A DNA stretch of 37,199 nucleotides, from IMG/VR virus record IMGVR_UViG_3300011830_000001, positions 62,001-99,199 of that record; one strand, 5' to 3'. Below, in pieces: positions 2 through 22,192 of the stretch. Position 1 is the first letter of the stretch. Every line of letters starts with the position of its first letter. The DNA comes from an uncultured virus (IMG/VR IMGVR_UViG_3300011830_000001). Taxonomy: Duplodnaviria; Heunggongvirae; Uroviricota; Caudoviricetes. The notes below the pieces were generated by a model. It did not search any database. It saw only the letters and a program-made list of their open reading frames with translations, and was not told the DNA's origin. Both the position numbers and the translations under genes were made by a program.

Positions 2-2365
2 GACGACGGCACCGTCACCCATGTACAGGAACTGTTTGGTACGGAAACAGGTGATGAGGTCAGTGCTATGCAGCGCTCCGGCGTGGGCGGCTGGTCATGG
101 GCTTATACCGATGGGCTTGGGCGTCCTGATTTCCGTGTGTTTAGCGGATTCGACTATAAGCGGTACCCAAACATCAATGATCGCTTCGGGAAGACTTCCG
201 CGCTGTTTGAGGGTGCTCCGGAGGACGATCAGCGCCTGAGCATGATCAAGACCGGAACAGGGGCCAGCGTGTCTACCCAATGGCAGATCCGCGACCTGTC
301 CGATCTGGTGATGAGTAACAAGCCCGACGGGCGCATCAATCCGGACTTCCCGGCGGAACTCCAGCCGCGTGACCGTACCAGACTCAAGAGCCAGCTACAG
401 GTGCTCGATATTGCCCGTACGATGGACTTTGACCGCCTGAGCCGCTCGGAGTGGGGCGGAGCAGGTGCGCCGATTATTGGCCCCGATAACGTCGTGGAGT
501 CTGGAAACGGTCGGACGATGGGGATAGCGCGAGCGTATGGCTCACAGCAGGCCGATCAATATCGTCAGAGCCTCATAGCCGCCCTGGGTGATTTCGGCCT
601 CTCTAAGGCCGATTTAGACGGTATCAGCGAGCCTGTGCTGGTGCGCCAGCGCCTCGATGACGTTGACCGGGTGCAGTTTGCGCAGGATTGCAATGTGCAG
701 CCGACCGGGCAACCGGAAGAGACCCGCGCCATGCTGGAAGCCGCCCGTAAGCCGAAGATCGACGAACCCGCGCCGCCGCCGTCCTTCCGGATGTGCAGCA
801 GCGTGAAGGACGTGATCGGGCTTATCAGGGTGGCACAGGGCAAGCTCACCATGCAGGACAGGCCGCTGACCGTGATGAAGTTCGTTGCCGATCAGCTGAT
901 GGCTCTTAAAAACCGCCAGCTGACGCGTACGGAATACATCCGGCTCACGCGCCCGCTGCTGGGTAAACCGACTGACGCCTACATGTTTCAGCCCGATAGC
1001 ATGATGGATACGCTCCGCCAGGTGCTGCCGAACTGCCCGCCCGCCGCGCTCCCGATTGACAGTGAAGCCTTTGAATTCGTCGTCTACGAGGGTAAGGGCT
1101 TTGACGTGCCAGCAATGGTGCGCCGCTGGGTGCAGGCCGGAAACGGGAGCAATGAGGCCAGCACTGACCAGCGCCGCGCAGCTGCACAGGACATCCTTAA
1201 AGCCTCAGAAGATGCGATGACGCTCAGTTATGCCAACGGATTGCCTGTCGTCAAATCGTATAACGGGCGCGTGTGGGCGTGGCTCGGCTGGATTTGTGAG
1301 GGCCAGCTCCCTGATATTAACGCGCTACGGCGGGCCAGTTACCAGCTGGCGAAATATGACATGCCGTTACCAGCACAGGCCAAAAAGCAGTATGACGAAG
1401 CGGTAGGTTTCGGGCAGTCATGGCTTGAAAGCGCTGAAGCACCGCGTAAGGCAACGCTCAAGGCGATGCGCGAAGATATCAGCGAAGGCAACCTGGCGGA
1501 TTATCTGACCAGAATCCGTGCGAAGCATCCGGGTCTGGCGAAGTATGCAAGCCGCCTTACGGCAATGATCCACTCCGGGCAATTTATCCAGTCTGGTGAC
1601 GGGGCTATGGACGGGATCGGCGTCGTGCTGGTGAACCTCGATTACTACAACGAGCCGTCATGGGGCCACTCATCCGCCACCGTGCAGCTGCGCGGCCTGA
1701 TGCAGCCCTACATGGACGCCATTAAAAACGAGGTGCAGCAGTTTATTGCCACCAGCAAGGTGAAACAGGCCGACGCCGATCAGTGGATCGGCACCATAGA
1801 TATCGAAGCGAAACTCTTACGCGCCCACGAAAAACGCTGGGGCAAAGGCGTGCTGCTGAGCTGGATCAAGGAGTGCTACCAGCTGGGCGGCGGGAAGTTC
1901 AAGACGCTGCGCTATTTCATCCTCGACCGCCGGAAAAAGCCCCGCGCATGCGCTCATGAGAAGGGCTATATCGTCATGAGCGGCGATACCACTAAAGAAA
2001 CCGTATGGCATGAAATGGGCCATCACTTCGAATTCAGTAACCAGGATTCGCTGGTGGAGGTTATGGCCTACCTGAAAGCCCGCCAGGAGCAATCCGGTAA
2101 TACCGACCTGGTGCGGCTGAATGAGTTTATTCATAGCGGATTTGACGCTGACGAGATCGGAATTAAAGACCAGCTTTCGCAGCCTTACGTTGGGAAGGTC
2201 TACGGCGATCTGAGCTATCTGCGTGCGTCTGAGGTTATCTCCACCGGGTTTGGGAACCTGGCCTGTACCAATGCCATCGCTACGGGCATGGCAGGCCTGA
2301 ACAATGACAACTGCACCGAGCTGGTGCTCGGCATTCTGGCTAAATACATGAGAAGGGGATCGTGA
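2..2365 (+). CDS. ddrB: DdrB-like polyvalent virion protein, 5'-truncated (Pro-like protease remnant, ddrB-type ParB-like domain, C-terminal HExxH zincin motif)
   Basis: Frame is open from base 2 (DDGTVTHVQELFG...). NPDFPAELQPRDR..APIIGPDNVVESGNGRT..PVLVR matches the ddrB-like ParB domain; WHEMGHHFE near the C-terminus; position fits the end of the P1 darA operon. Confidence 0.78.
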   Translation, partial: DDGTVTHVQELFGTETGDEVSAMQRSGVGGWSWAYTDGLGRPDFRVFSGFDYKRYPNINDRFGKTSALFEGAPEDDQRLSMIKTGTGASVSTQWQIRDLSDLVMSNKPDGRINPDFPAELQPRDRTRLKSQLQVLDIARTMDFDRLSRSEWGGAGAPIIGPDNVVESGNGRTMGIARAYGSQQADQYRQSLIAALGDFGLSKADLDGISEPVLVRQRLDDVDRVQFAQDCNVQPTGQPEETRAMLEAARKPKIDEPAPPPSFRMCSSVKDVIGLIRVAQGKLTMQDRPLTVMKFVADQLMALKNRQLTRTEYIRLTRPLLGKPTDAYMFQPDSMMDTLRQVLPNCPPAALPIDSEAFEFVVYEGKGFDVPAMVRRWVQAGNGSNEASTDQRRAAAQDILKASEDAMTLSYANGLPVVKSYNGRVWAWLGWICEGQLPDINALRRASYQLAKYDMPLPAQAKKQYDEAVGFGQSWLESAEAPRKATLKAMREDISEGNLADYLTRIRAKHPGLAKYASRLTAMIHSGQFIQSGDGAMDGIGVVLVNLDYYNEPSWGHSSATVQLRGLMQPYMDAIKNEVQQFIATSKVKQADADQWIGTIDIEAKLLRAHEKRWGKGVLLSWIKECYQLGGGKFKTLRYFILDRRKKPRACAHEKGYIVMSGDTTKETVWHEMGHHFEFSNQDSLVEVMAYLKARQEQSGNTDLVRLNEFIHSGFDADEIGIKDQLSQPYVGKVYGDLSYLRASEVISTGFGNLACTNAIATGMAGLNNDNCTELVLGILAKYMRRGS

Positions 2366-2688
2366 TGGTAACAGTAGAAGCTCGACATGGCCTCGATGAA
2401 ACCGAAGTGCTCACTCTGACCTTTCCGGAAGCAGATCCCGGGATCTCCCAGGCGTTCACCTGCTCCGGGCGTTTTGACGCGCCAGCACTCATCGAATTTT
2501 TCAACAGCCAGCCCGGCGGGATAGGCGTCTGCGACGGTGTAAGCGGCTTTGCGCCGATGATGAAGCCGTTCGCGGTGCTGCATGCGCTCCGGGTCATTGG
2601 CTTTGAACTCATCATGCCGGAAGACTGGCAGGAACAATTTAACGACACAAACCAGCCGGACAACGGCGAAAACAAGGAGATATTTTAA
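2362..2688 (+). CDS. Hypothetical protein at the position of P1 hxr
   Basis: 108 aa, GTGA overlap with the ddrB-like gene and AGGGGA RBS; the hxr link is by synteny only. Confidence 0.65.
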   Translation: MMVTVEARHGLDETEVLTLTFPEADPGISQAFTCSGRFDAPALIEFFNSQPGGIGVCDGVSGFAPMMKPFAVLHALRVIGFELIMPEDWQEQFNDTNQPDNGENKEIF

Positions 2689-2690
2689 TT

Positions 2691-3047
2691 ATGGGCGACT
2701 TAAGTGCACACTTTTCTCGTAAGGAAATGGCCTGCCACTGCGGCTGCGGCTTTAATACCGTCAACCAGGCGTTGGTGGAAAAGCTGGAGGCGATCCGGGC
2801 GCACTTCGGTGCTCCGGTCATCGTTAACAGCGCCTGCCGCTGTCCAAAGCATAACGCCAGCCAGGGCGGCGCGGTGAAGTCTCAGCACGTTTTGGGTAAC
2901 GCTGCGGATATCAGGGTAAAAGGTTTTACGCCGAGCCAGGTGGCGGATTTTGTCGATAAGGCATGGCCTGACACGGGTGGTTTAGGGCGGTACCGGACAT
3001 TTACGCACGTCGATGTGCGCCCCCCGAAAGCCCGCTGGAATGGTTAG
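2691..3047 (+). CDS. Peptidase M15 family Zn peptidase, probable endolysin
   Basis: HFSRKEMACHCGC, SACRCPKHN, SQHVLGNAADI and FTHVDVR motifs; AAGGAG RBS. Confidence 0.88.
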   Translation: MGDLSAHFSRKEMACHCGCGFNTVNQALVEKLEAIRAHFGAPVIVNSACRCPKHNASQGGAVKSQHVLGNAADIRVKGFTPSQVADFVDKAWPDTGGLGRYRTFTHVDVRPPKARWNG

Positions 3048-3057
3048 TAGGGCTACT

Positions 3058-3110
3058 GGATCGGCAATCAGCCGATCCTCTGATGAGGGTTAAACCCCGT
3101 GTTTTTTTTA
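3058..3110 (+). terminator. Hairpins and T-run closing the late operon
   Basis: GGATCGGC-AATCA-GCCGATCC, then GGGT-TAA-ACCC followed by a T8 run. Confidence 0.5.
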
Positions 3111-3291
3111 ACCAATGACAGGGAAGTCATTATTTGAACAGCCAAAACATAAAAAAGCTTAAAGTAAGAATTAGTTTAGAGTAATTTTACTAAATGTCTG
3201 GATCGTAACAATGGTTCTGAACTAAGATGCTGGCGAGACGATCCTCGAACGGTTCGTTTTGGTTTGGTGAAATGGATTTAGCACCTTTCGG

Positions 3292-3436
3292 AAAAGAAAA
3301 AACCGCTGATTTGGCGTCAGCGGTTTCTCTGAAAGAGTAGTTTGACTTGGCGGTCAAACTGAGTGTTAAAACCATCGTCCCTGGGGAGGGAAAAACCACC
3401 AGACCAAGACGTATCTATGGGGAAGGGGGCTTCTTG
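3292..3436 (-). ncRNA. Candidate cis-antisense RNA (~145 nt) with two CGCCAA-loop hairpins
   Basis: Minus-strand promoter at 3443-3471; the final hairpin (3300-3326) is followed on the minus strand by a U-rich tract. Confidence 0.55.
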
Positions 3437-3442
3437 TCTCTG

Positions 3443-3471
3443 AGTTTATGAAAATAGCTCAGATGATGCAA
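3443..3471 (-). promoter_or_regulatory. Sigma70-like promoter for the antisense RNA
   Basis: Minus strand TTGCAT-N17-TAAACT. Confidence 0.6.
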
Positions 3472-4072
3472 ATTAAATCGCTAATCGAGTGCGAACTGAT
3501 TGCAATAAGCCCCTTACATCTCACGCTGAGCTGGGTGGAGGATAGTGTCACTGGCGGCTCGGCGGGGATTCCTGCAACCAGCGTGATCGACGGCAGGGGC
3601 GTAATGAGTTTCCAGGCAATGTGCCTGATGGTTAGCCGATAAATCTCGGAGTGCGAAGCGCGGATGTTGGGGAAACCCTCCTGCGAACTGCCGCGACCAT
3701 CACCGCAACCTGGTAGGTGCAAACGCTACGATGTGCCGCGATAGGGCATACTTGCACCAGCCACAGGGCTATCTCTTGATGTGGTACGTTTGACCGATTC
3801 CGAACGCCGAACGGCATGGATCTGTCCACGGCAGGACTTCCTTACCCTTAAGACCTTTTGTGTCTCGGGGTAGGGGAGTTTTTGACGTTATCCCTCAAAC
3901 CGACAACCGACAGCATGATCACCGACCGAGCCGGACGCAAAGACTGATGAGTGGCTTAAGAAAAAAATGAAATTTTTCAGGTCTAAATCAATCCGGATCT
4001 GCTATGGTATACGCCATTAGTGCTAAGACTGGTGAGAGAGTCTGGTACTAAGTTGAAACTAAACCTGGGGAA

Positions 4073-4564
4073 ATGAAGATGATTGCAGTAACAGTGAAGT
4101 CGAAAGGAAAGAGAACACGAGTGCTTGCGCTATCTGAACCAACAGCACCTAATCCTGATTTCTTACCATTTGAAAAAGTTAAGAACGGTATAACCTCAAA
4201 AGTATTTAAGCGAACACCGCGAAAAGAATATCCAGAAGAAAATGATTTAACTCACGCAATAAAAATTATTACTCCTATGACGCCTGTTAATGGCAAATCA
4301 AAGCACCATCAATATTGCGCTCAGGGCATATTTATTTATTCAGGGTCGAAGCAGCCCGAAGCCAGAGAGGACAAGCCCGTAGTGCTCTATTCCGAGCATG
4401 ACTACAGCCTCAAGCGTAACGACGTTATCCGTATTACTACTCCTGCTGAATTTGGTATAGAGCGCCTTGAGACTAAAATAAGAATCCATCTGGTTAATTC
4501 AGCAGAAGAAATATTTGATAATCACTGCGCTGTATTCTGGAATGAAGCGGTGAATGACAATTGA
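4073..4564 (+). CDS. Hypothetical protein, basic N-terminus
   Basis: 163-aa AT-rich ORF with GGGG RBS; upstream extended -10-like TGCTATGGT and a leader hairpin at 4017-4051. Confidence 0.7.
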   Translation: MKMIAVTVKSKGKRTRVLALSEPTAPNPDFLPFEKVKNGITSKVFKRTPRKEYPEENDLTHAIKIITPMTPVNGKSKHHQYCAQGIFIYSGSKQPEAREDKPVVLYSEHDYSLKRNDVIRITTPAEFGIERLETKIRIHLVNSAEEIFDNHCAVFWNEAVNDN

Positions 4565-4823
4565 AATGCAGTCATCAATCGAGCCGCCCATTAAATTATT
4601 GCCGTGCCCTTTTTGTGGCGCTGAACCAAATATACTCGTTGATTTCGGCGAAAGACAAAGCGATTGCTATTACATTGCTTGTACCAACACTGCTTGCCTT
4701 GTGGCTCCGATAACGCTGACCTTCCGGCGCTCACGCGTGGCCTGCCAGGCATGGAATCGCCGACCGGGTGAACCAGACCCGGCTCCGGTGGCGATAGGCC
4801 AGCGACCACGAAGCGTCACCTAA
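4554..4823 (+). CDS. Lar-family restriction alleviation Zn-finger protein
   Basis: LLPCPFCG...CTNTAC...AWNRR signature. Confidence 0.8.
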   Translation: MTIEMQSSIEPPIKLLPCPFCGAEPNILVDFGERQSDCYYIACTNTACLVAPITLTFRRSRVACQAWNRRPGEPDPAPVAIGQRPRSVT

Positions 4824-4827
4824 AAGT

Positions 4828-4853
4828 AAGCCCGCAGAGCGCGGGCTTTTTTA
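4828..4853. terminator. Intrinsic terminator between convergent lar-like gene and pro
   Basis: AAGCCCGC-AGAGC-GCGGGCTT followed by a T-run. Confidence 0.8.
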
Positions 4854-5867
4854 TTAGCTGAATTTCGGCGCTTTACCGCCGGGAACGGCTTTGCTCGGGC
4901 CGCTGATCACGGTGTAATTGCGCGGTAGCGGTTGCGAGCCACCCTGGCCCGGCAGCGGCGCACGCACAGACTCCAGCAGCGCCGACAGCACGCGGAAATC
5001 CTCTTCCGTGTTTAACGCCTCCAGAGCGGCCCGGTCAGCTTTGCCGAGGAAGACAGGCAGTTTACTGATAAAGGCCTGCTGCGCGGCAACACGACCCTCC
5101 TCGCTAGCCTGAGCAGTTTCCAGCATGGCCTTTGTCTTCTGGTAGTTGTTCGCCAGGTCGGCAATCATGCCGCTCATTTCAAACATGCGGGCACGGAGAG
5201 CCTCATTTTCGATAAGCGGGCTTTCAAACATCGCGTGCTGCACCATCTTTTCATAGTGCTGGGCGATATCGACGGCGGCGCTCTCGGTAAATCCGGCAGA
5301 TTTGCAGCGCTCAACGATCCGGGTCTCACGGTCGGCGGCGCTCTCCATCATAGGCGCGGGCTGTTTATTCAGGCTGATGAAATTCGGCGTGGTCACGTAG
5401 TCGAAGCCCTCAAACAGGGTGACGCGGGCTGCGCTCGCAGATTCGTAGCCGTCAGTAACCCATGACCAGCCGCCGACGCTCCCGGCCTCCATCGTGTTAA
5501 CCACGCGGCCTGGGTCGGTATCCAGGATCTCCTGCGTGTGGGTCACGATATCGCCATCAAGCTTGATATCCAGTGTGCGGGCGGCTGGCACGTTATTCAG
5601 CTGAATGATCTGCCCGTCCACGCGCATGATGGTGAACTCCGGCAGGCGCAGCTGCTGGTGCTCGTTATAATACATTTCCCGGCGACCGTGCCCGTAATAG
5701 CCGTACATTTCACCCAGCTCCATGCGCTCACGCGCGCGCGGGCTGGCGATGGCGTGCTGCACCGATTCCAGGATGTAATTGCGCCCGTTCTGCGGCGTGA
5801 ATTTGCGCTTAAGGTTACGCAGGGAGAATTTGTCTTGCGTCGTGCGGACGCCTTTTAAATGAGCCAT
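4854..5867 (-). CDS. pro: Capsid maturation (head-processing) protease
   Basis: MYGYYGHGRR, VTHTQEILDT, VGGWSW and GFDYVTTPNF motifs of P1 Pro; coupled to prt. Confidence 0.85.
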   Translation of the reverse strand: MAHLKGVRTTQDKFSLRNLKRKFTPQNGRNYILESVQHAIASPRARERMELGEMYGYYGHGRREMYYNEHQQLRLPEFTIMRVDGQIIQLNNVPAARTLDIKLDGDIVTHTQEILDTDPGRVVNTMEAGSVGGWSWVTDGYESASAARVTLFEGFDYVTTPNFISLNKQPAPMMESAADRETRIVERCKSAGFTESAAVDIAQHYEKMVQHAMFESPLIENEALRARMFEMSGMIADLANNYQKTKAMLETAQASEEGRVAAQQAFISKLPVFLGKADRAALEALNTEEDFRVLSALLESVRAPLPGQGGSQPLPRNYTVISGPSKAVPGGKAPKFS

Positions 5868-7609
5868 TACTCGGCCTCCTGAGAAAATGCCATCTTGATC
5901 AGGTTGAGTTTTTCCTGGTCGGTCATGTTGTCGATATCGAGATCCTTGAGCCAGTCCATATCTTCCGGCGCGGACTCCATGAAACCACTGCCGCCGCCAA
6001 AGCCGCCGCCGTGGCCTGAGCCGTCTGCTGGTGGTTTCGCGCTTTCGAATTCGCTGATCATGGCGTCAATGGTCTTCTGGTCTACCTTGAGCACACTGCC
6101 GAAGAGGTAGCTCATCATGGTTTTGCTGTTAGCGAGCTTGTAGTTGTCCTGGATCGCATCCAGCACGGTGACGACGAGCGAGATATAGTTAATCCGGCTG
6201 TCAGAATCGCGGTTTTCCTGCTCCTGAATGGCGGTATTCAGGGAGTTAAATTCAATACGGTACGGGCGCAGGGAGGCCGGATAAACCTTGCCGTATTTGT
6301 AGGCCAGGTGGATATCTATGATGCGGTAGATGGCTTCCTGTGCTGCCTTGCGGATCCACTCGGCACGAAGGGCAGACTGGATAGCCGTCTGTATAAATCC
6401 GCCTTCACCCAGCCCGCCGCTCATCTGGTCAGCCCATCCCAGCATGGTGTAGTCAACGCCGAGCGTAGAGGCCAGCTGACGCACCCACAACATAATATCC
6501 TCAATGCCGTTAATGTCGGCACTGACCTGCTGCGTATCGACTGTGATCCCACCCTTGCCATTCCCCATTACCGGAAGAACGTGGTTAATTACCGTCGGCA
6601 GGGCATTCATCATAGAGGCGTTGCGCTGGATAGAGTCCGTTGAGCGCTTAAGGGACTGCGTGATCTCGCGGGTATAGCGTGCGGCGTTTACCGGATCGAG
6701 TGTGTCCGTATTGACCGCGATCAGCCTGTCCTGTTTGCCCGTATTAAAGCGGTTCGCCAGCAGGGAATTGATCGCCTGATTCAGGTTGAACCACGGCTGG
6801 TAAGACGATTCCAGAAACGATGTGCCGTAGTTCTGCGTTTCAACCAGCGACTGACTATGGCGCGGGGAAAGGAGGCTGTATTCCTTGTTCGACCATGTTA
6901 CCGGGCGCAGCTTGTGGTTAGGCGTCCAGAATGGCACGCGCAGCGGCACCAGGATCCACGGGTCGGACAGTACGCGCTGCCCGCGCTCATCCAGAATGAA
7001 ATCCCCGGCGAAACCCGCCAGCATGCCTCCCTGATAGAACTCCTGAACGAAATGGGGAAGGGTGTAGTAGTTATTCTCGATGGATACCACGCCCTTACCA
7101 TGCTCGGCCTGCGGGCGCACGTAGGAGACGCCATAAATCATCATGGTCATACACCACGATGGCAGACCATCACTGAGCATATCCCCGAGATCAGCCATCA
7201 ACTCTTCACAGCGGGCCAGCGTCTCTTTGTCAGCGGCATCGACAGGGGCAAGGTTAAAGCAGCGGCGGGACTTTGTATCGACGCTCAGCGCGTGCGCCAG
7301 GTGGATGGTCAGTGCATCGTGGATCATTGGCGTTTTCGCCATTTTCTCAAGTAATGCATAGCGGGAGCGTCGCTCTAGCGGTAGCGCCTCCTGCATGTCC
7401 ACCTGATCGCCCACGCTTGCGAGCGGCTCCTGTGTCGCCGTCGGATTGAAATTTCTCAGCGTGGAGTGCGACACAATAGCGCCCGTCCCGATTGATGCAG
7501 TAAGCGGCAGCTGGCTGCTGCTGCGTCGCATACGGGTAGAGAATGGCGACATAATTTTCAGCAATGCTGATTTCGCAAACCACAGCTGATCTGTTTGGTT
7601 TTCAGCCAT
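5867..7609 (-). CDS. prt: Portal protein, P1 Prt-like
   Basis: 580 aa; ETQNYGTSFLE, ADINGIEDI, LGWADQMSGGLGEGG motifs; divergent from darB and upstream of pro as in P1. Confidence 0.85.
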   Translation of the reverse strand: MAENQTDQLWFAKSALLKIMSPFSTRMRRSSSQLPLTASIGTGAIVSHSTLRNFNPTATQEPLASVGDQVDMQEALPLERRSRYALLEKMAKTPMIHDALTIHLAHALSVDTKSRRCFNLAPVDAADKETLARCEELMADLGDMLSDGLPSWCMTMMIYGVSYVRPQAEHGKGVVSIENNYYTLPHFVQEFYQGGMLAGFAGDFILDERGQRVLSDPWILVPLRVPFWTPNHKLRPVTWSNKEYSLLSPRHSQSLVETQNYGTSFLESSYQPWFNLNQAINSLLANRFNTGKQDRLIAVNTDTLDPVNAARYTREITQSLKRSTDSIQRNASMMNALPTVINHVLPVMGNGKGGITVDTQQVSADINGIEDIMLWVRQLASTLGVDYTMLGWADQMSGGLGEGGFIQTAIQSALRAEWIRKAAQEAIYRIIDIHLAYKYGKVYPASLRPYRIEFNSLNTAIQEQENRDSDSRINYISLVVTVLDAIQDNYKLANSKTMMSYLFGSVLKVDQKTIDAMISEFESAKPPADGSGHGGGFGGGSGFMESAPEDMDWLKDLDIDNMTDQEKLNLIKMAFSQEAE

Positions 7610-21394: not shown

Positions 21395-21942
21395 ACAAAT
21401 TAGAACGGCTGGTGGAGGCCGCAGCAGGAGCAGAACCAGCAGCCTGGGAGCGGCATATAGTGGCGAAAATTGCCGAGTGGAAAGAGAAGGCCACGCCTTC
21501 CAGCGTGGATTCACTATTTGTTCACTGGCTAGTCAGCGACGACGAAACGACGGGCATGTCGCCGCATGACGCTCATGAACCGGACTCCGATGGGATACGC
21601 TTTGCGCTGGAAGCCTTTCGTGCCGGAATGGAGCTGGCCTGTTACATCGCTGACATGTCGGATAAAGGCGAGAAGACCCCGAAAGAAGCCGCTCCCGCGT
21701 TAATCGATACACCTGACGGCAATCAGCAGGTAATCACTTTAGAGCTGAGAGATGCCGGAAAAACTATCAAATCGGCGATTCCTGCGCAGCCGGGCCAGCG
21801 CCCGCCAGCGGGGGCGTTCCCTCCGCTAAAACCAGAGCCGCAGTACCAACCCAGCGATCCGCGCAGCCCTTATCATCTACTCTGGCTTAAAGACCAGGAA
21901 AATATAGAAGTAGTGGAAGACTTAGATCCAAAAATCGTTTAG
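21391..21942 (+). CDS. Hypothetical protein
   Basis: TTGA overlap start after a GGAG RBS; Pro-rich tail. Confidence 0.65.
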   Translation: MNKLERLVEAAAGAEPAAWERHIVAKIAEWKEKATPSSVDSLFVHWLVSDDETTGMSPHDAHEPDSDGIRFALEAFRAGMELACYIADMSDKGEKTPKEAAPALIDTPDGNQQVITLELRDAGKTIKSAIPAQPGQRPPAGAFPPLKPEPQYQPSDPRSPYHLLWLKDQENIEVVEDLDPKIV

Positions 21943-22015
21943 AGTTAGTAGCTCAAGGTATAGGGGTGCCACTGCTTCAATATTGAGTTACATCCAAATT
22001 GCTGTGTGTAGTTTA

Positions 22016-22042
22016 GCCCATCTCGCTGATGGGCGTTTTTTT
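22016..22042 (+). terminator. Intrinsic terminator
   Basis: GCCCATC-TCGCT-GATGGGC-G-T7. Confidence 0.75.
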
Positions 22043-22192
22043 ACCTGACATACAGGATTGAGCGGCCTCAATCCTCTGTGCCAGGAGAGATCTGGTGCGC
22101 ATTCATTCATCGTTACTATCGATCACAATCAGGCCAGGGCGGCTCGCGCACTCCGCCCCTGGTGCAGAACCGTTTAACCATTGAGGCACCTA

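Follow-up and report, generated by a model that had tools for sequence, protein, structure and literature searches.

FinP of the F-like plasmids is a short antisense RNA built of two stem-loops joined by a short spacer, the second stem-loop and its U-tail constituting the terminator, and it pairs through loop-loop contacts with the mirror hairpins of the traJ leader. The loop word UUGGCG/CGCCAA is that of Inc RNA and repZ in ColIb-P9 and of CopA and CopT in R1, and in the lytic replicon of phage P1 a constitutive antisense RNA, P53as, acts on the kilA-repL operon. Here we analyse a stretch of 37,199 nucleotides (the window: bases 62,001-99,199 of the 99,199-bp record, bearing a 77-bp terminal repeat, of the uncultured virus IMG/VR IMGVR_UViG_3300011830_000001, Caudoviricetes), in which two neighbouring hairpins with the same loop word lie within a long gap free of open reading frames (ORFs). 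It is possible, and we put it forward tentatively as the simplest account, that the minus strand of this gap holds a small cis-antisense RNA gene (3436 to 3292) whose two CGCCAA loops would kiss the mirror hairpins of an opposing transcript and curb transcription toward the ORFan and Lar-like genes that follow. An earlier reading of the DNA from its letters (hereafter the sequence-only reading) had proposed an antisense RNA of this kind with a copy-control-like architecture, an interpretation that is now partly supported. Positions are those of the window unless given as genome positions.

The twin hairpins and the predicted minus-strand RNA

The features on which the argument turns are the following.

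3300-3326, plus-strand coordinates: hairpin 1, a perfect 10-bp stem with the loop TTTGGCG
3339-3360, loop TTGGCG on the plus strand and CGCCAA on the minus strand: hairpin 2, a perfect 8-bp stem, 12 nt upstream of the terminator hairpin on the minus strand
3290-3326, minus strand: hairpin 1 with its U-tract, an intrinsic terminator with the loop CGCCAAA, a GC-rich 10-bp stem and U6CU4
3443-3471, minus strand: promoter-like site TTGCAT-17-TAAACT (TTGCAT at 3471-3466, TAAACT at 3448-3443), from the sequence and a position weight matrix (PWM)
3292-3436, minus strand: predicted small RNA of about 145 nt, as delimited by the promoter-like site and the terminator

The twin hairpins carry an identical loop word beyond chance. 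The cores of their stems differ (CCGCTGA and GTTTGAC) and the loop word TTGGCG is common to both; since the stems are unrelated, the pair is not a duplication. The plus strand of the genome holds 24 copies of TTGGCG and 40 of CGCCAA, and only two of these 64, the two described here, occupy the loop of a perfect hairpin with a stem of at least 5 bp. Perfect hairpins with stems of at least 7 bp number 70 and form four adjacent pairs (no more than 40 nt apart), of which the twin pair is the one that shares its loop 6-mer; lowering the stem to at least 6 bp gives 185 hairpins and 14 adjacent pairs, and again the twin pair is the only one to do so. At a rough 2/4096 per pair, the genome-wide probability of such sharing is about 0.002-0.007.

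On the minus strand, the 81-nt module from 3366 to 3286 folds at -25.9 kcal/mol (z -5.3, equalled by none of 200 shuffles) and leaves the loops CGCCAA and CGCCAAA open. Taken singly, hairpin 1 folds at -17.2 kcal/mol (z -3.75) and hairpin 2 at -8.7 kcal/mol (z -5.2). Directly after hairpin 1 on this strand comes the U-tract UUUUUUCUUUU, and the GC-rich stem-loop from 3326 to 3290 followed by U6CU4 has the form of an intrinsic (Rho-independent) terminator; the terminator-finding tool missed it because its greedy G-T stem extension swallows the T-run. The promoter-like site lies 75 nt upstream of the hairpins, keeps the TTG, the TA and the final T of the consensus, and scores 11.1 bits with the PWM (99.98th percentile over the positions of the genome); only one site in the gap scores better. 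Two claims of the sequence-only reading thus hold up well: the TTGCAT-N17-TAAACT site is present on the minus strand at 3471-3443, among the top 0.02% of genome positions by PWM, and the unit that it heads, with two CGCCAA(A) loops, ends in a canonical hairpin and U-tract, for a predicted RNA of ~145 nt. This RNA (3292-3436) would fold at -45 kcal/mol (z -2.85, one of 200 shuffles equal) and would be antisense to any plus-strand transcript spanning the gap. The promoter-to-terminator unit predicted to encode it appears to be the best-defined feature of the gap.

In the mechanism that we favour, a sigma-70-type promoter at 3471-3443 would start minus-strand transcription near 3436, and hairpin 1 with its U-tract would halt the transcript near 3292. 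The last 80 nt of the ~145-nt RNA would then fold into two hairpins presenting CGCCAA in open loops of 6-7 nt, and a plus-strand RNA running through the gap, whether it had read through out of the ddrB-lysin late operon or had started at a weak promoter near 3159-3187, would carry the mirror hairpins with UUGGC(G) loops. Two loop-loop contacts could seed pairing, to be followed by duplex formation and cleavage or by premature termination, and the antisense RNA would keep transcription out of the ORFan/Lar-like operon when it is unwanted, as in the plasmid-prophage state. We favour this mechanism because the twin loops are beyond chance, the module that holds them folds far better than its shuffles, a U6CU4 terminator closes the unit and a high-scoring promoter-like site stands 75 nt upstream of the hairpins; because the fold significance is confined to 3201-3600, the region is non-coding and the ORFan and Lar-like genes form a separate unit; and because a layout of two stem-loops with a terminator matches known antisense RNAs such as FinP.

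The same hairpins could also serve plain transcriptional insulation. Hairpin 1 would be simply an intrinsic terminator and the C-rich stretch of minus-strand RNA preceding it a loading site for Rho, and the two would keep minus-strand read-through from entering the lysin/dar late operon in antisense direction; neither hairpin 2 nor the common loop word would then have a role of its own. Hairpin 1 has the canonical shape of a terminator, convergent operons meet in the gap region, and the minus strand is C-rich and G-poor (on the plus strand of the gap, nine runs of four or more G against two of C). Searching four enterobacterial genomes with the gap by BLAST gave a terminator-flank match only: a tRNA terminator of a Pantoea genome has flanks that are almost those of hairpin 1. 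Hairpin 2 recurs as an exact 20-mer (stem plus TTGGCG loop) in four metagenome contigs, in three unrelated contexts, a number near the roughly one random match expected on a rough estimate, and one of these copies is the terminator directly behind a tRNA gene. However, a strong bidirectional terminator at 4826-4850 already serves the pro operon, the sharing of a loop 6-mer by unrelated stems, seen in only one of 14 adjacent pairs, is unlikely by chance, and there is a high-scoring promoter-like site 75 nt upstream of the hairpins. We regard insulation as unlikely, albeit as an explanation to be taken seriously.

Other minus-strand and repeated sequences in the vicinity deserve mention in their own right. 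The inverted repeat CTGAG-N13-CTCAG at 3440-3462 overlaps the -10 box and occurs once in the window against 0.01 copies expected; it could be a candidate operator. A 12-nt direct repeat with one mismatch links TGATTGCAATAA (3497-3508) to TGATTGCAGTAA (4080-4091, codons 3-6 of the ORFan); about 0.13 such matches are estimated by chance. The predicted RNA does not include the repeat; were the minus-strand RNA longer, the repeat would make it complementary to the start region of the ORFan. A further site aims leftwards at the 3' end of the endolysin gene, and no terminator follows it.

3184-3211, minus strand: second, stronger promoter-like site TTGTTA-16-TAAAAT (3211-3184), 13.2 bits, 99.99th percentile, the sole call of the promoter tool

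The gap, its folding and its relatives

3048-4072: ORF-free gap by the ORF lists, the largest non-coding stretch of the 99,199-bp genome
3058-3110, plus strand: a hairpin (3058-3078) and a weak hairpin with a T8 run, at the end of the ddrB-lysin operon; z -2.7 on both strands for 3001-3200
3101-3700, plus strand: G-rich stretch, GC skew +0.168, 98th percentile of 600-nt windows

The gap at 3048-4072 is non-coding, and the next-largest ORF-free stretch of the genome, of 636 nt, is the iteron origin. Ten stop-to-stop frames within the gap gave no Pfam match and only two chance-level PHROG matches at E ≤ 1, and by codon usage the gap ORFs (scores of -0.49 to +0.02 per codon) fall within the wrong-frame null (mean -0.32, standard deviation 0.28), as against 0.08-0.59 per codon for real genes. 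In relatives of ~96-97% identity, 1-base insertions after 3395, 3509, 3642 and 3960 disrupt the two longest ORFs of the gap, one of 64 aa on the plus strand and one of 87 aa on the minus strand. Searches of the gap for tRNAs, for tandem repeats and iterons, and for small hydrophobic ORFs found none.

Folding in 200-nt windows, with 25 shuffles each, gave the following picture across the gap.

3201-3400: z -3.9 (plus strand), -4.2 (minus strand)
3401-3600: z -3.2 (plus strand), -2.5 (minus strand)
3501-3800: z about 0 on both strands, no better than shuffles
3701-3900: z -2.2 (plus strand), -0.9 (minus strand)

A 621-nt fold reaches z -3.6 (20 shuffles); since the signal is concentrated in the leftward windows, it is carried mostly by the 5' third. 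The large RNA with switched folding that the sequence-only reading had envisaged therefore loses its footing, with z about 0 over 3501-3800 and a best plus-strand promoter-like site as weak as 8.6 bits, and so does the proposal that CGCCGA at 3805-3810 is an intramolecular partner of the loops, the duplex reaching -11.1 kcal/mol against a shuffled-target mean of -11.5.

These duplex energies also bear on a same-strand immunity RNA of the P1 c4 or P4 CI kind, in which plus-strand hairpins would be excised and their loops would pair with boxes downstream. The relative D6 does carry icd and an antirepressor gene in the same slot, but no Rfam C4 match was obtained in the window or the genome, no icd or ant homolog was detected, and the best downstream loop duplexes (-11.1 and -12.4 kcal/mol) equal their shuffled-target means (-11.5 and -12.3). 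Same-strand targets of the c4/P4 type were rejected with loop-target duplexes at chance level; this explanation is close to refuted and deserves hardly any credence.

In strand composition, the plus strand of the whole gap counts nine G-runs and two C-runs of four or more, with G-runs enriched 3.6-fold; per kb, the genome has 2.4 G-runs and 1.6 C-runs on average. The G-richness of the plus strand allows two interpretations, an R-loop-prone RNA made from the plus strand or a C-rich RNA from the minus strand onto which Rho loads. The consensus of the P1 C1 operator found 13 sites with at least 12 of 17 matches, against 4-11 in shuffles, and none was convincing in the gap.

The search for relatives of the gap was wide. 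Rfam recognised no family at gathering score, whether in the window or in the remaining 62 kb. By blastn, the gap had no match in the phage collection, and 3050-4072 (word 11) had none among 72,556 PLSDB plasmids at E ≤ 1e-5. Against 82 and then 95 P1-like loci, blastn and nhmmer returned one 26-nt match in two loci (E 0.8-1.0), and DNA patterns from the gap had no match among viral contigs. Of the sampled words, 8-45% are found in each of 16 public sequencing runs (13 studies). The four runs examined contain the same phage, in short contigs of low depth that keep its synteny from 2311 to 6000; these copies are fragments of that phage and not an independent mobile element. Divergence in two of them, X2 and X3, is given as totals per piece, parts without coverage being uninformative.

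3053-3321, run X2: 15/269 differences
3306-4267, run X2: 33/966 differences and 4 gaps
3145-3371, run X3: 10/227 differences
3567-4031, run X3: 2/468 differences and 3 gaps
most flanking coding pieces, runs X2 and X3: about 2-3% differences

Several observations weigh against an antisense RNA at this locus. The sequence-only reading had UUGGCG displayed in both loops (3300-3326 and 3339-3360), and the words and their positions are as described, so that UUGGCG and CGCCAA do stand in complementary hairpin loops; however, RNAfold adds a U-G pair to each plus-strand stem, predicting loops that close to 4-5 nt (UUGGC and UGGC) and leave the hexamer only partly unpaired. The promoter-like site matches the consensus at only 7 of 12 positions (3/6 and 4/6), for which reason it falls below the cut-off of the promoter tool, and about 0.4 sites as good are expected by chance in the gap, as estimated from its percentile. 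The plus strand of the gap has no good promoter, the best sensible one being TTAAAG-17-TAATTT at 3159-3187 with 8.6 bits, and the nearest plus-strand start codon to the predicted RNA is at 4073, 710 nt downstream. None of the 16 public runs holding sampled words is listed as RNA on record. Outside the ~96-100% identical copies of the same phage no homolog of the gap was found, and among these copies the left part of the gap evolves no more slowly than the genes, with no sign of special constraint.

Genome context and the question of lytic replication

The window is part of a P1-like phage-plasmid. Family scans of the genome recover the P1-type genes ddrA/ddrB, darA, hdf, darB, ulx, pro and the portal gene prt, together with pmgS/B/C/G, lpa, pacA/pacB and tail and baseplate genes; they also recover a ParM partition gene and a HicAB pair. 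This gene set is joined by a plasmid replicon and partition genes. A Cre-like integrase is encoded (cre by position), and the gene at the c1 position belongs to phrog_1678, of unknown function. The Pro protein shares only 36-45% identity with its counterparts in P1, P7, D6 and 678 plasmid records; among the exclusively distant P1-like relatives found through Pro by an alignment-based scan, the best identity was 45% in viral contigs (149, of which 80 were kept) and 44% in species genomes (13). As single queries, Pro and the ORFan had no matches in viral contigs, nor had Pro in metagenomes.

The neighbours of the gap are arranged as follows.

2-2365, plus strand: ddrB, first in the local order and followed by a 108-aa gene
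2691-3047, plus strand: M15 endolysin gene, directly before the ORF-free gap
4073-4564, plus strand: 163-aa ORFan of low GC, with no family match
4554-4823, plus strand: Lar-like 89-aa gene (restriction-alleviation/RalR family; PF14354, phrog_599)
4826-4850: bidirectional terminator in the interval between the Lar-like gene and pro, from the sequence; z -2.6 (plus) and -2.7 (minus) for 4701-4900

Beyond this last terminator lie pro and prt on the minus strand, and then darB. The ORFan-Lar operon stands apart as a unit, closed by a bidirectional terminator of its own. The GC content of the ORFan is about 40%, as against 57-60% for the phage, and in two libraries, one of 5.8 billion clustered proteins and one of 1.84 billion representatives, its relatives are confined to its own 90% cluster of five sequences on three contigs; its Atlas model is not usable, with a predicted local distance difference test score of only 0.32, and PADLOC found nothing. 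The Lar-like gene scores 27.6 bits against PF14354, below the cut-off of 28.6, and matches phrog_599 at E 5e-11.

The presence of a Lar/RalR-family gene 1.2 kb away brings in a type I toxin-antitoxin-like arrangement, in which the small RNA would be the antitoxin of the Lar-like protein and would act on its mRNA, as RalA does. RalR is reported to be a DNase toxin restrained by an adjacent, oppositely oriented small RNA through 16 nt of pairing (PMC4041452). Here, however, the predicted RNA has no complementarity of at least 12 nt elsewhere in the phage (the longest exact stretch is 11 nt, at chance level), its predicted duplex with the ORFan-Lar mRNA is no more stable than those of shuffles, the Lar match stays just under the Pfam cut-off and the gap is devoid of a small hydrophobic ORF. 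We consider a toxin-antitoxin pair very improbable.

With respect to replication, the sequence-only reading had noted that no rep gene lies nearby, which is correct locally, but the genome does possess one 34 kb from the hairpins. A Rep_3 initiator of 243 aa (PF01051, E 6e-18) is encoded at genome 30,620-31,351, and upstream of it are at least six ~19-bp iterons (of the TGTAG-N-TTTCTACACG type), two perfect DnaA boxes and an AT-rich TTATTAC repeat, which together make a complete iteron-type plasmid replicon at genome 30.6-32.0 kb. Because this replicon exists elsewhere, the Rep-independent plasmid replicon that had been suggested for the gap is not needed.

A lytic replicon is a different matter. 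The D6 gene that directly follows pro carries the annotation repL, and after it come icd and an antirepressor gene; in the Rosenbergiella and Erwinia elements this slot is filled by a homolog of D6 RepL (E 8e-17 and 3e-6, respectively). Citrobacter has in the slot a gene with weak similarity to that of Erwinia alone (E 0.02) and no match to D6 RepL. No RepL-family gene was found in the present genome, either by tblastn with four queries at E ≤ 1 or with a hidden Markov model of four sequences against 1,254 frames (best E 4.7); a test with the RepL family PF05732 is uninformative, as D6 RepL itself falls outside it. Homologs of kilA, icd and the antirepressor gene ant were likewise not detected in the genome. 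Since RepL sits in the slot of relatives and is absent here, a role of the gap in replication is conceivable.

One form that such a role could take is an RNA-primed (R-loop) lytic origin replacing RepL/oriL, where a G-rich plus-strand hybrid would prime DNA synthesis and the antisense RNA would throttle it in the manner of RNA I. The gap is the largest non-coding region of the genome and the second largest is the iteron origin, and both the GC skew and the G-run enrichment of the plus strand agree with the idea. RNA-based prophage origins that dispense with a Rep protein are reported in cluster A mycobacteriophages (PMC7157519), and in P1 lytic replication is reported to need transcription of repL, oriL being thought to lie inside that gene (PMC9948254). 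However, the gap shows no similarity to the PLSDB plasmids, many of which are ColE1-type replicons, and its match to the RNAI family is noise; no good plus-strand promoter lies upstream of hairpin 1, and 3501-3800 is without a fold signal. Neither DnaA boxes nor iterons occur in the gap, GATC is not in excess there (8 versus 5.6 per kb), and the cumulative GC skew makes no turn. Moreover, the slot downstream of pro in P1 holds lyz, ssb, isaA and IS1 and hence is a variable cargo site, not a fixed replicon site, and the low-GC ORFan together with the Lar-like gene suggests acquired cargo. An RNA-primed origin is for these reasons a rather improbable reading, and its fullest version, a protein-independent, transcript-primed lytic origin in place of RepL/oriL with the twin-loop RNA as its throttle, would be a long shot.

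Elsewhere in the genome, a pair of HicA-like toxin and HicB-like antitoxin genes lies at genome 3201-3796, upstream of lpa, roughly at the position of phd-doc in P1. Boxes of the P1 late promoters, taken from the P1 record, gave three to four candidate sites genome-wide and none in the gap. Three sites of the form AAATTA(A/C)T-N5-TA-N3-T, at genome 49933, 52611 and 79963 on the plus strand, precede baseplate, tail-fibre-assembly and head genes; they resemble the -22/-10 boxes of P1 late promoters and may be the late promoters of this phage.

If the small RNA is made, it would constitute a compact antisense regulator with two identical kissing loops in a phage-plasmid lineage that has no cultured member, and could offer a handle on how accessory cargo of the anti-restriction type is silenced in such elements. 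If, on the other hand, the lytic-origin reading were true, a ColE1-style replicon would act as the lytic switch, the iteron replicon being kept for lysogeny. The wider question is how a P1-like phage without RepL initiates lytic replication.

Comparison with known antisense RNA systems

As regards families, membership of the predicted RNA in those of plasmid copy control is not supported, and the homology implied by the copy-control likeness of the sequence-only reading finds no Rfam family at gathering score. The RNAI family (RF00106) matches the minus strand at 3294-3367 with 20.4 bits (gathering score 47; E 0.43 at loose thresholds); the alignment rests on the terminator hairpin and omits the middle stem-loop. 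Other terminators of the window match unrelated small RNA families at 22-44 bits, and the RNAI match, being below threshold and terminator-based like these, was set aside as noise. Plasmid copy-control antisense families other than RNAI, and C4, gave nothing at E ≤ 10.

Two of these other terminators are worth recording. The one between the Lar-like gene and pro (4825-4901, minus strand) gives a sub-threshold match to isrK (26.1 bits, E 0.08), which illustrates how terminators attract matches to small RNA families. At 21920-22044 on the plus strand, RprA matches with 43.6 bits (gathering score 70, E 0.026) and the RyhB and anti-hemB models match the same terminator; it is possibly another candidate small RNA unit.

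The likeness to RNA I and RNA II of ColE1 is that the antisense RNA would lie across the 5' part of an extended, G-rich stretch that is not translated and adjoins no Rep gene. Unlike in ColE1, the RNAI score here is below gathering, PLSDB plasmids show no similarity, and a promoter of the RNA II type just upstream of hairpin 1 was not found, with nothing at 3255-3290 and the 3159-3187 site about 110 nt upstream. P53as comes from the same phage family, and the slot holds a lytic replicon in several relatives; its target in P1, however, is kilA-repL, and neither gene was found in this genome. With RalR/RalA of the rac prophage the locus has in common a Lar-family gene and a nearby, opposite small RNA that would end in an intrinsic terminator, but RalA lies just downstream of ralR, whereas the predicted RNA lies 1.2 kb upstream of the Lar-like gene and lacks complementarity to its mRNA.

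Inc RNA and CopA/CopT share with the gap hairpins the loop word and the idea of fast loop-loop recognition. Their target is the leader of a rep gene, whereas the gap is followed by no rep gene, leader peptide or pseudoknot partner, contains no ORF with a family match and offers the loops no partner downstream. The strand that bears the terminator carries CGCCAA here, not UUGGCG, and the phage's own replicon is of the iteron type.

FinP lies opposite the ribosome-binding site of traJ, whereas no gene starts within 700 nt of the predicted RNA, and the two loops are identical to each other here, unlike those of FinP. The architecture, however, is the same: two stem-loops, the second of which is the terminator. 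In layout and in loop chemistry the predicted RNA would thus be like FinP or Inc RNA, with copy control serving as an analogy only.

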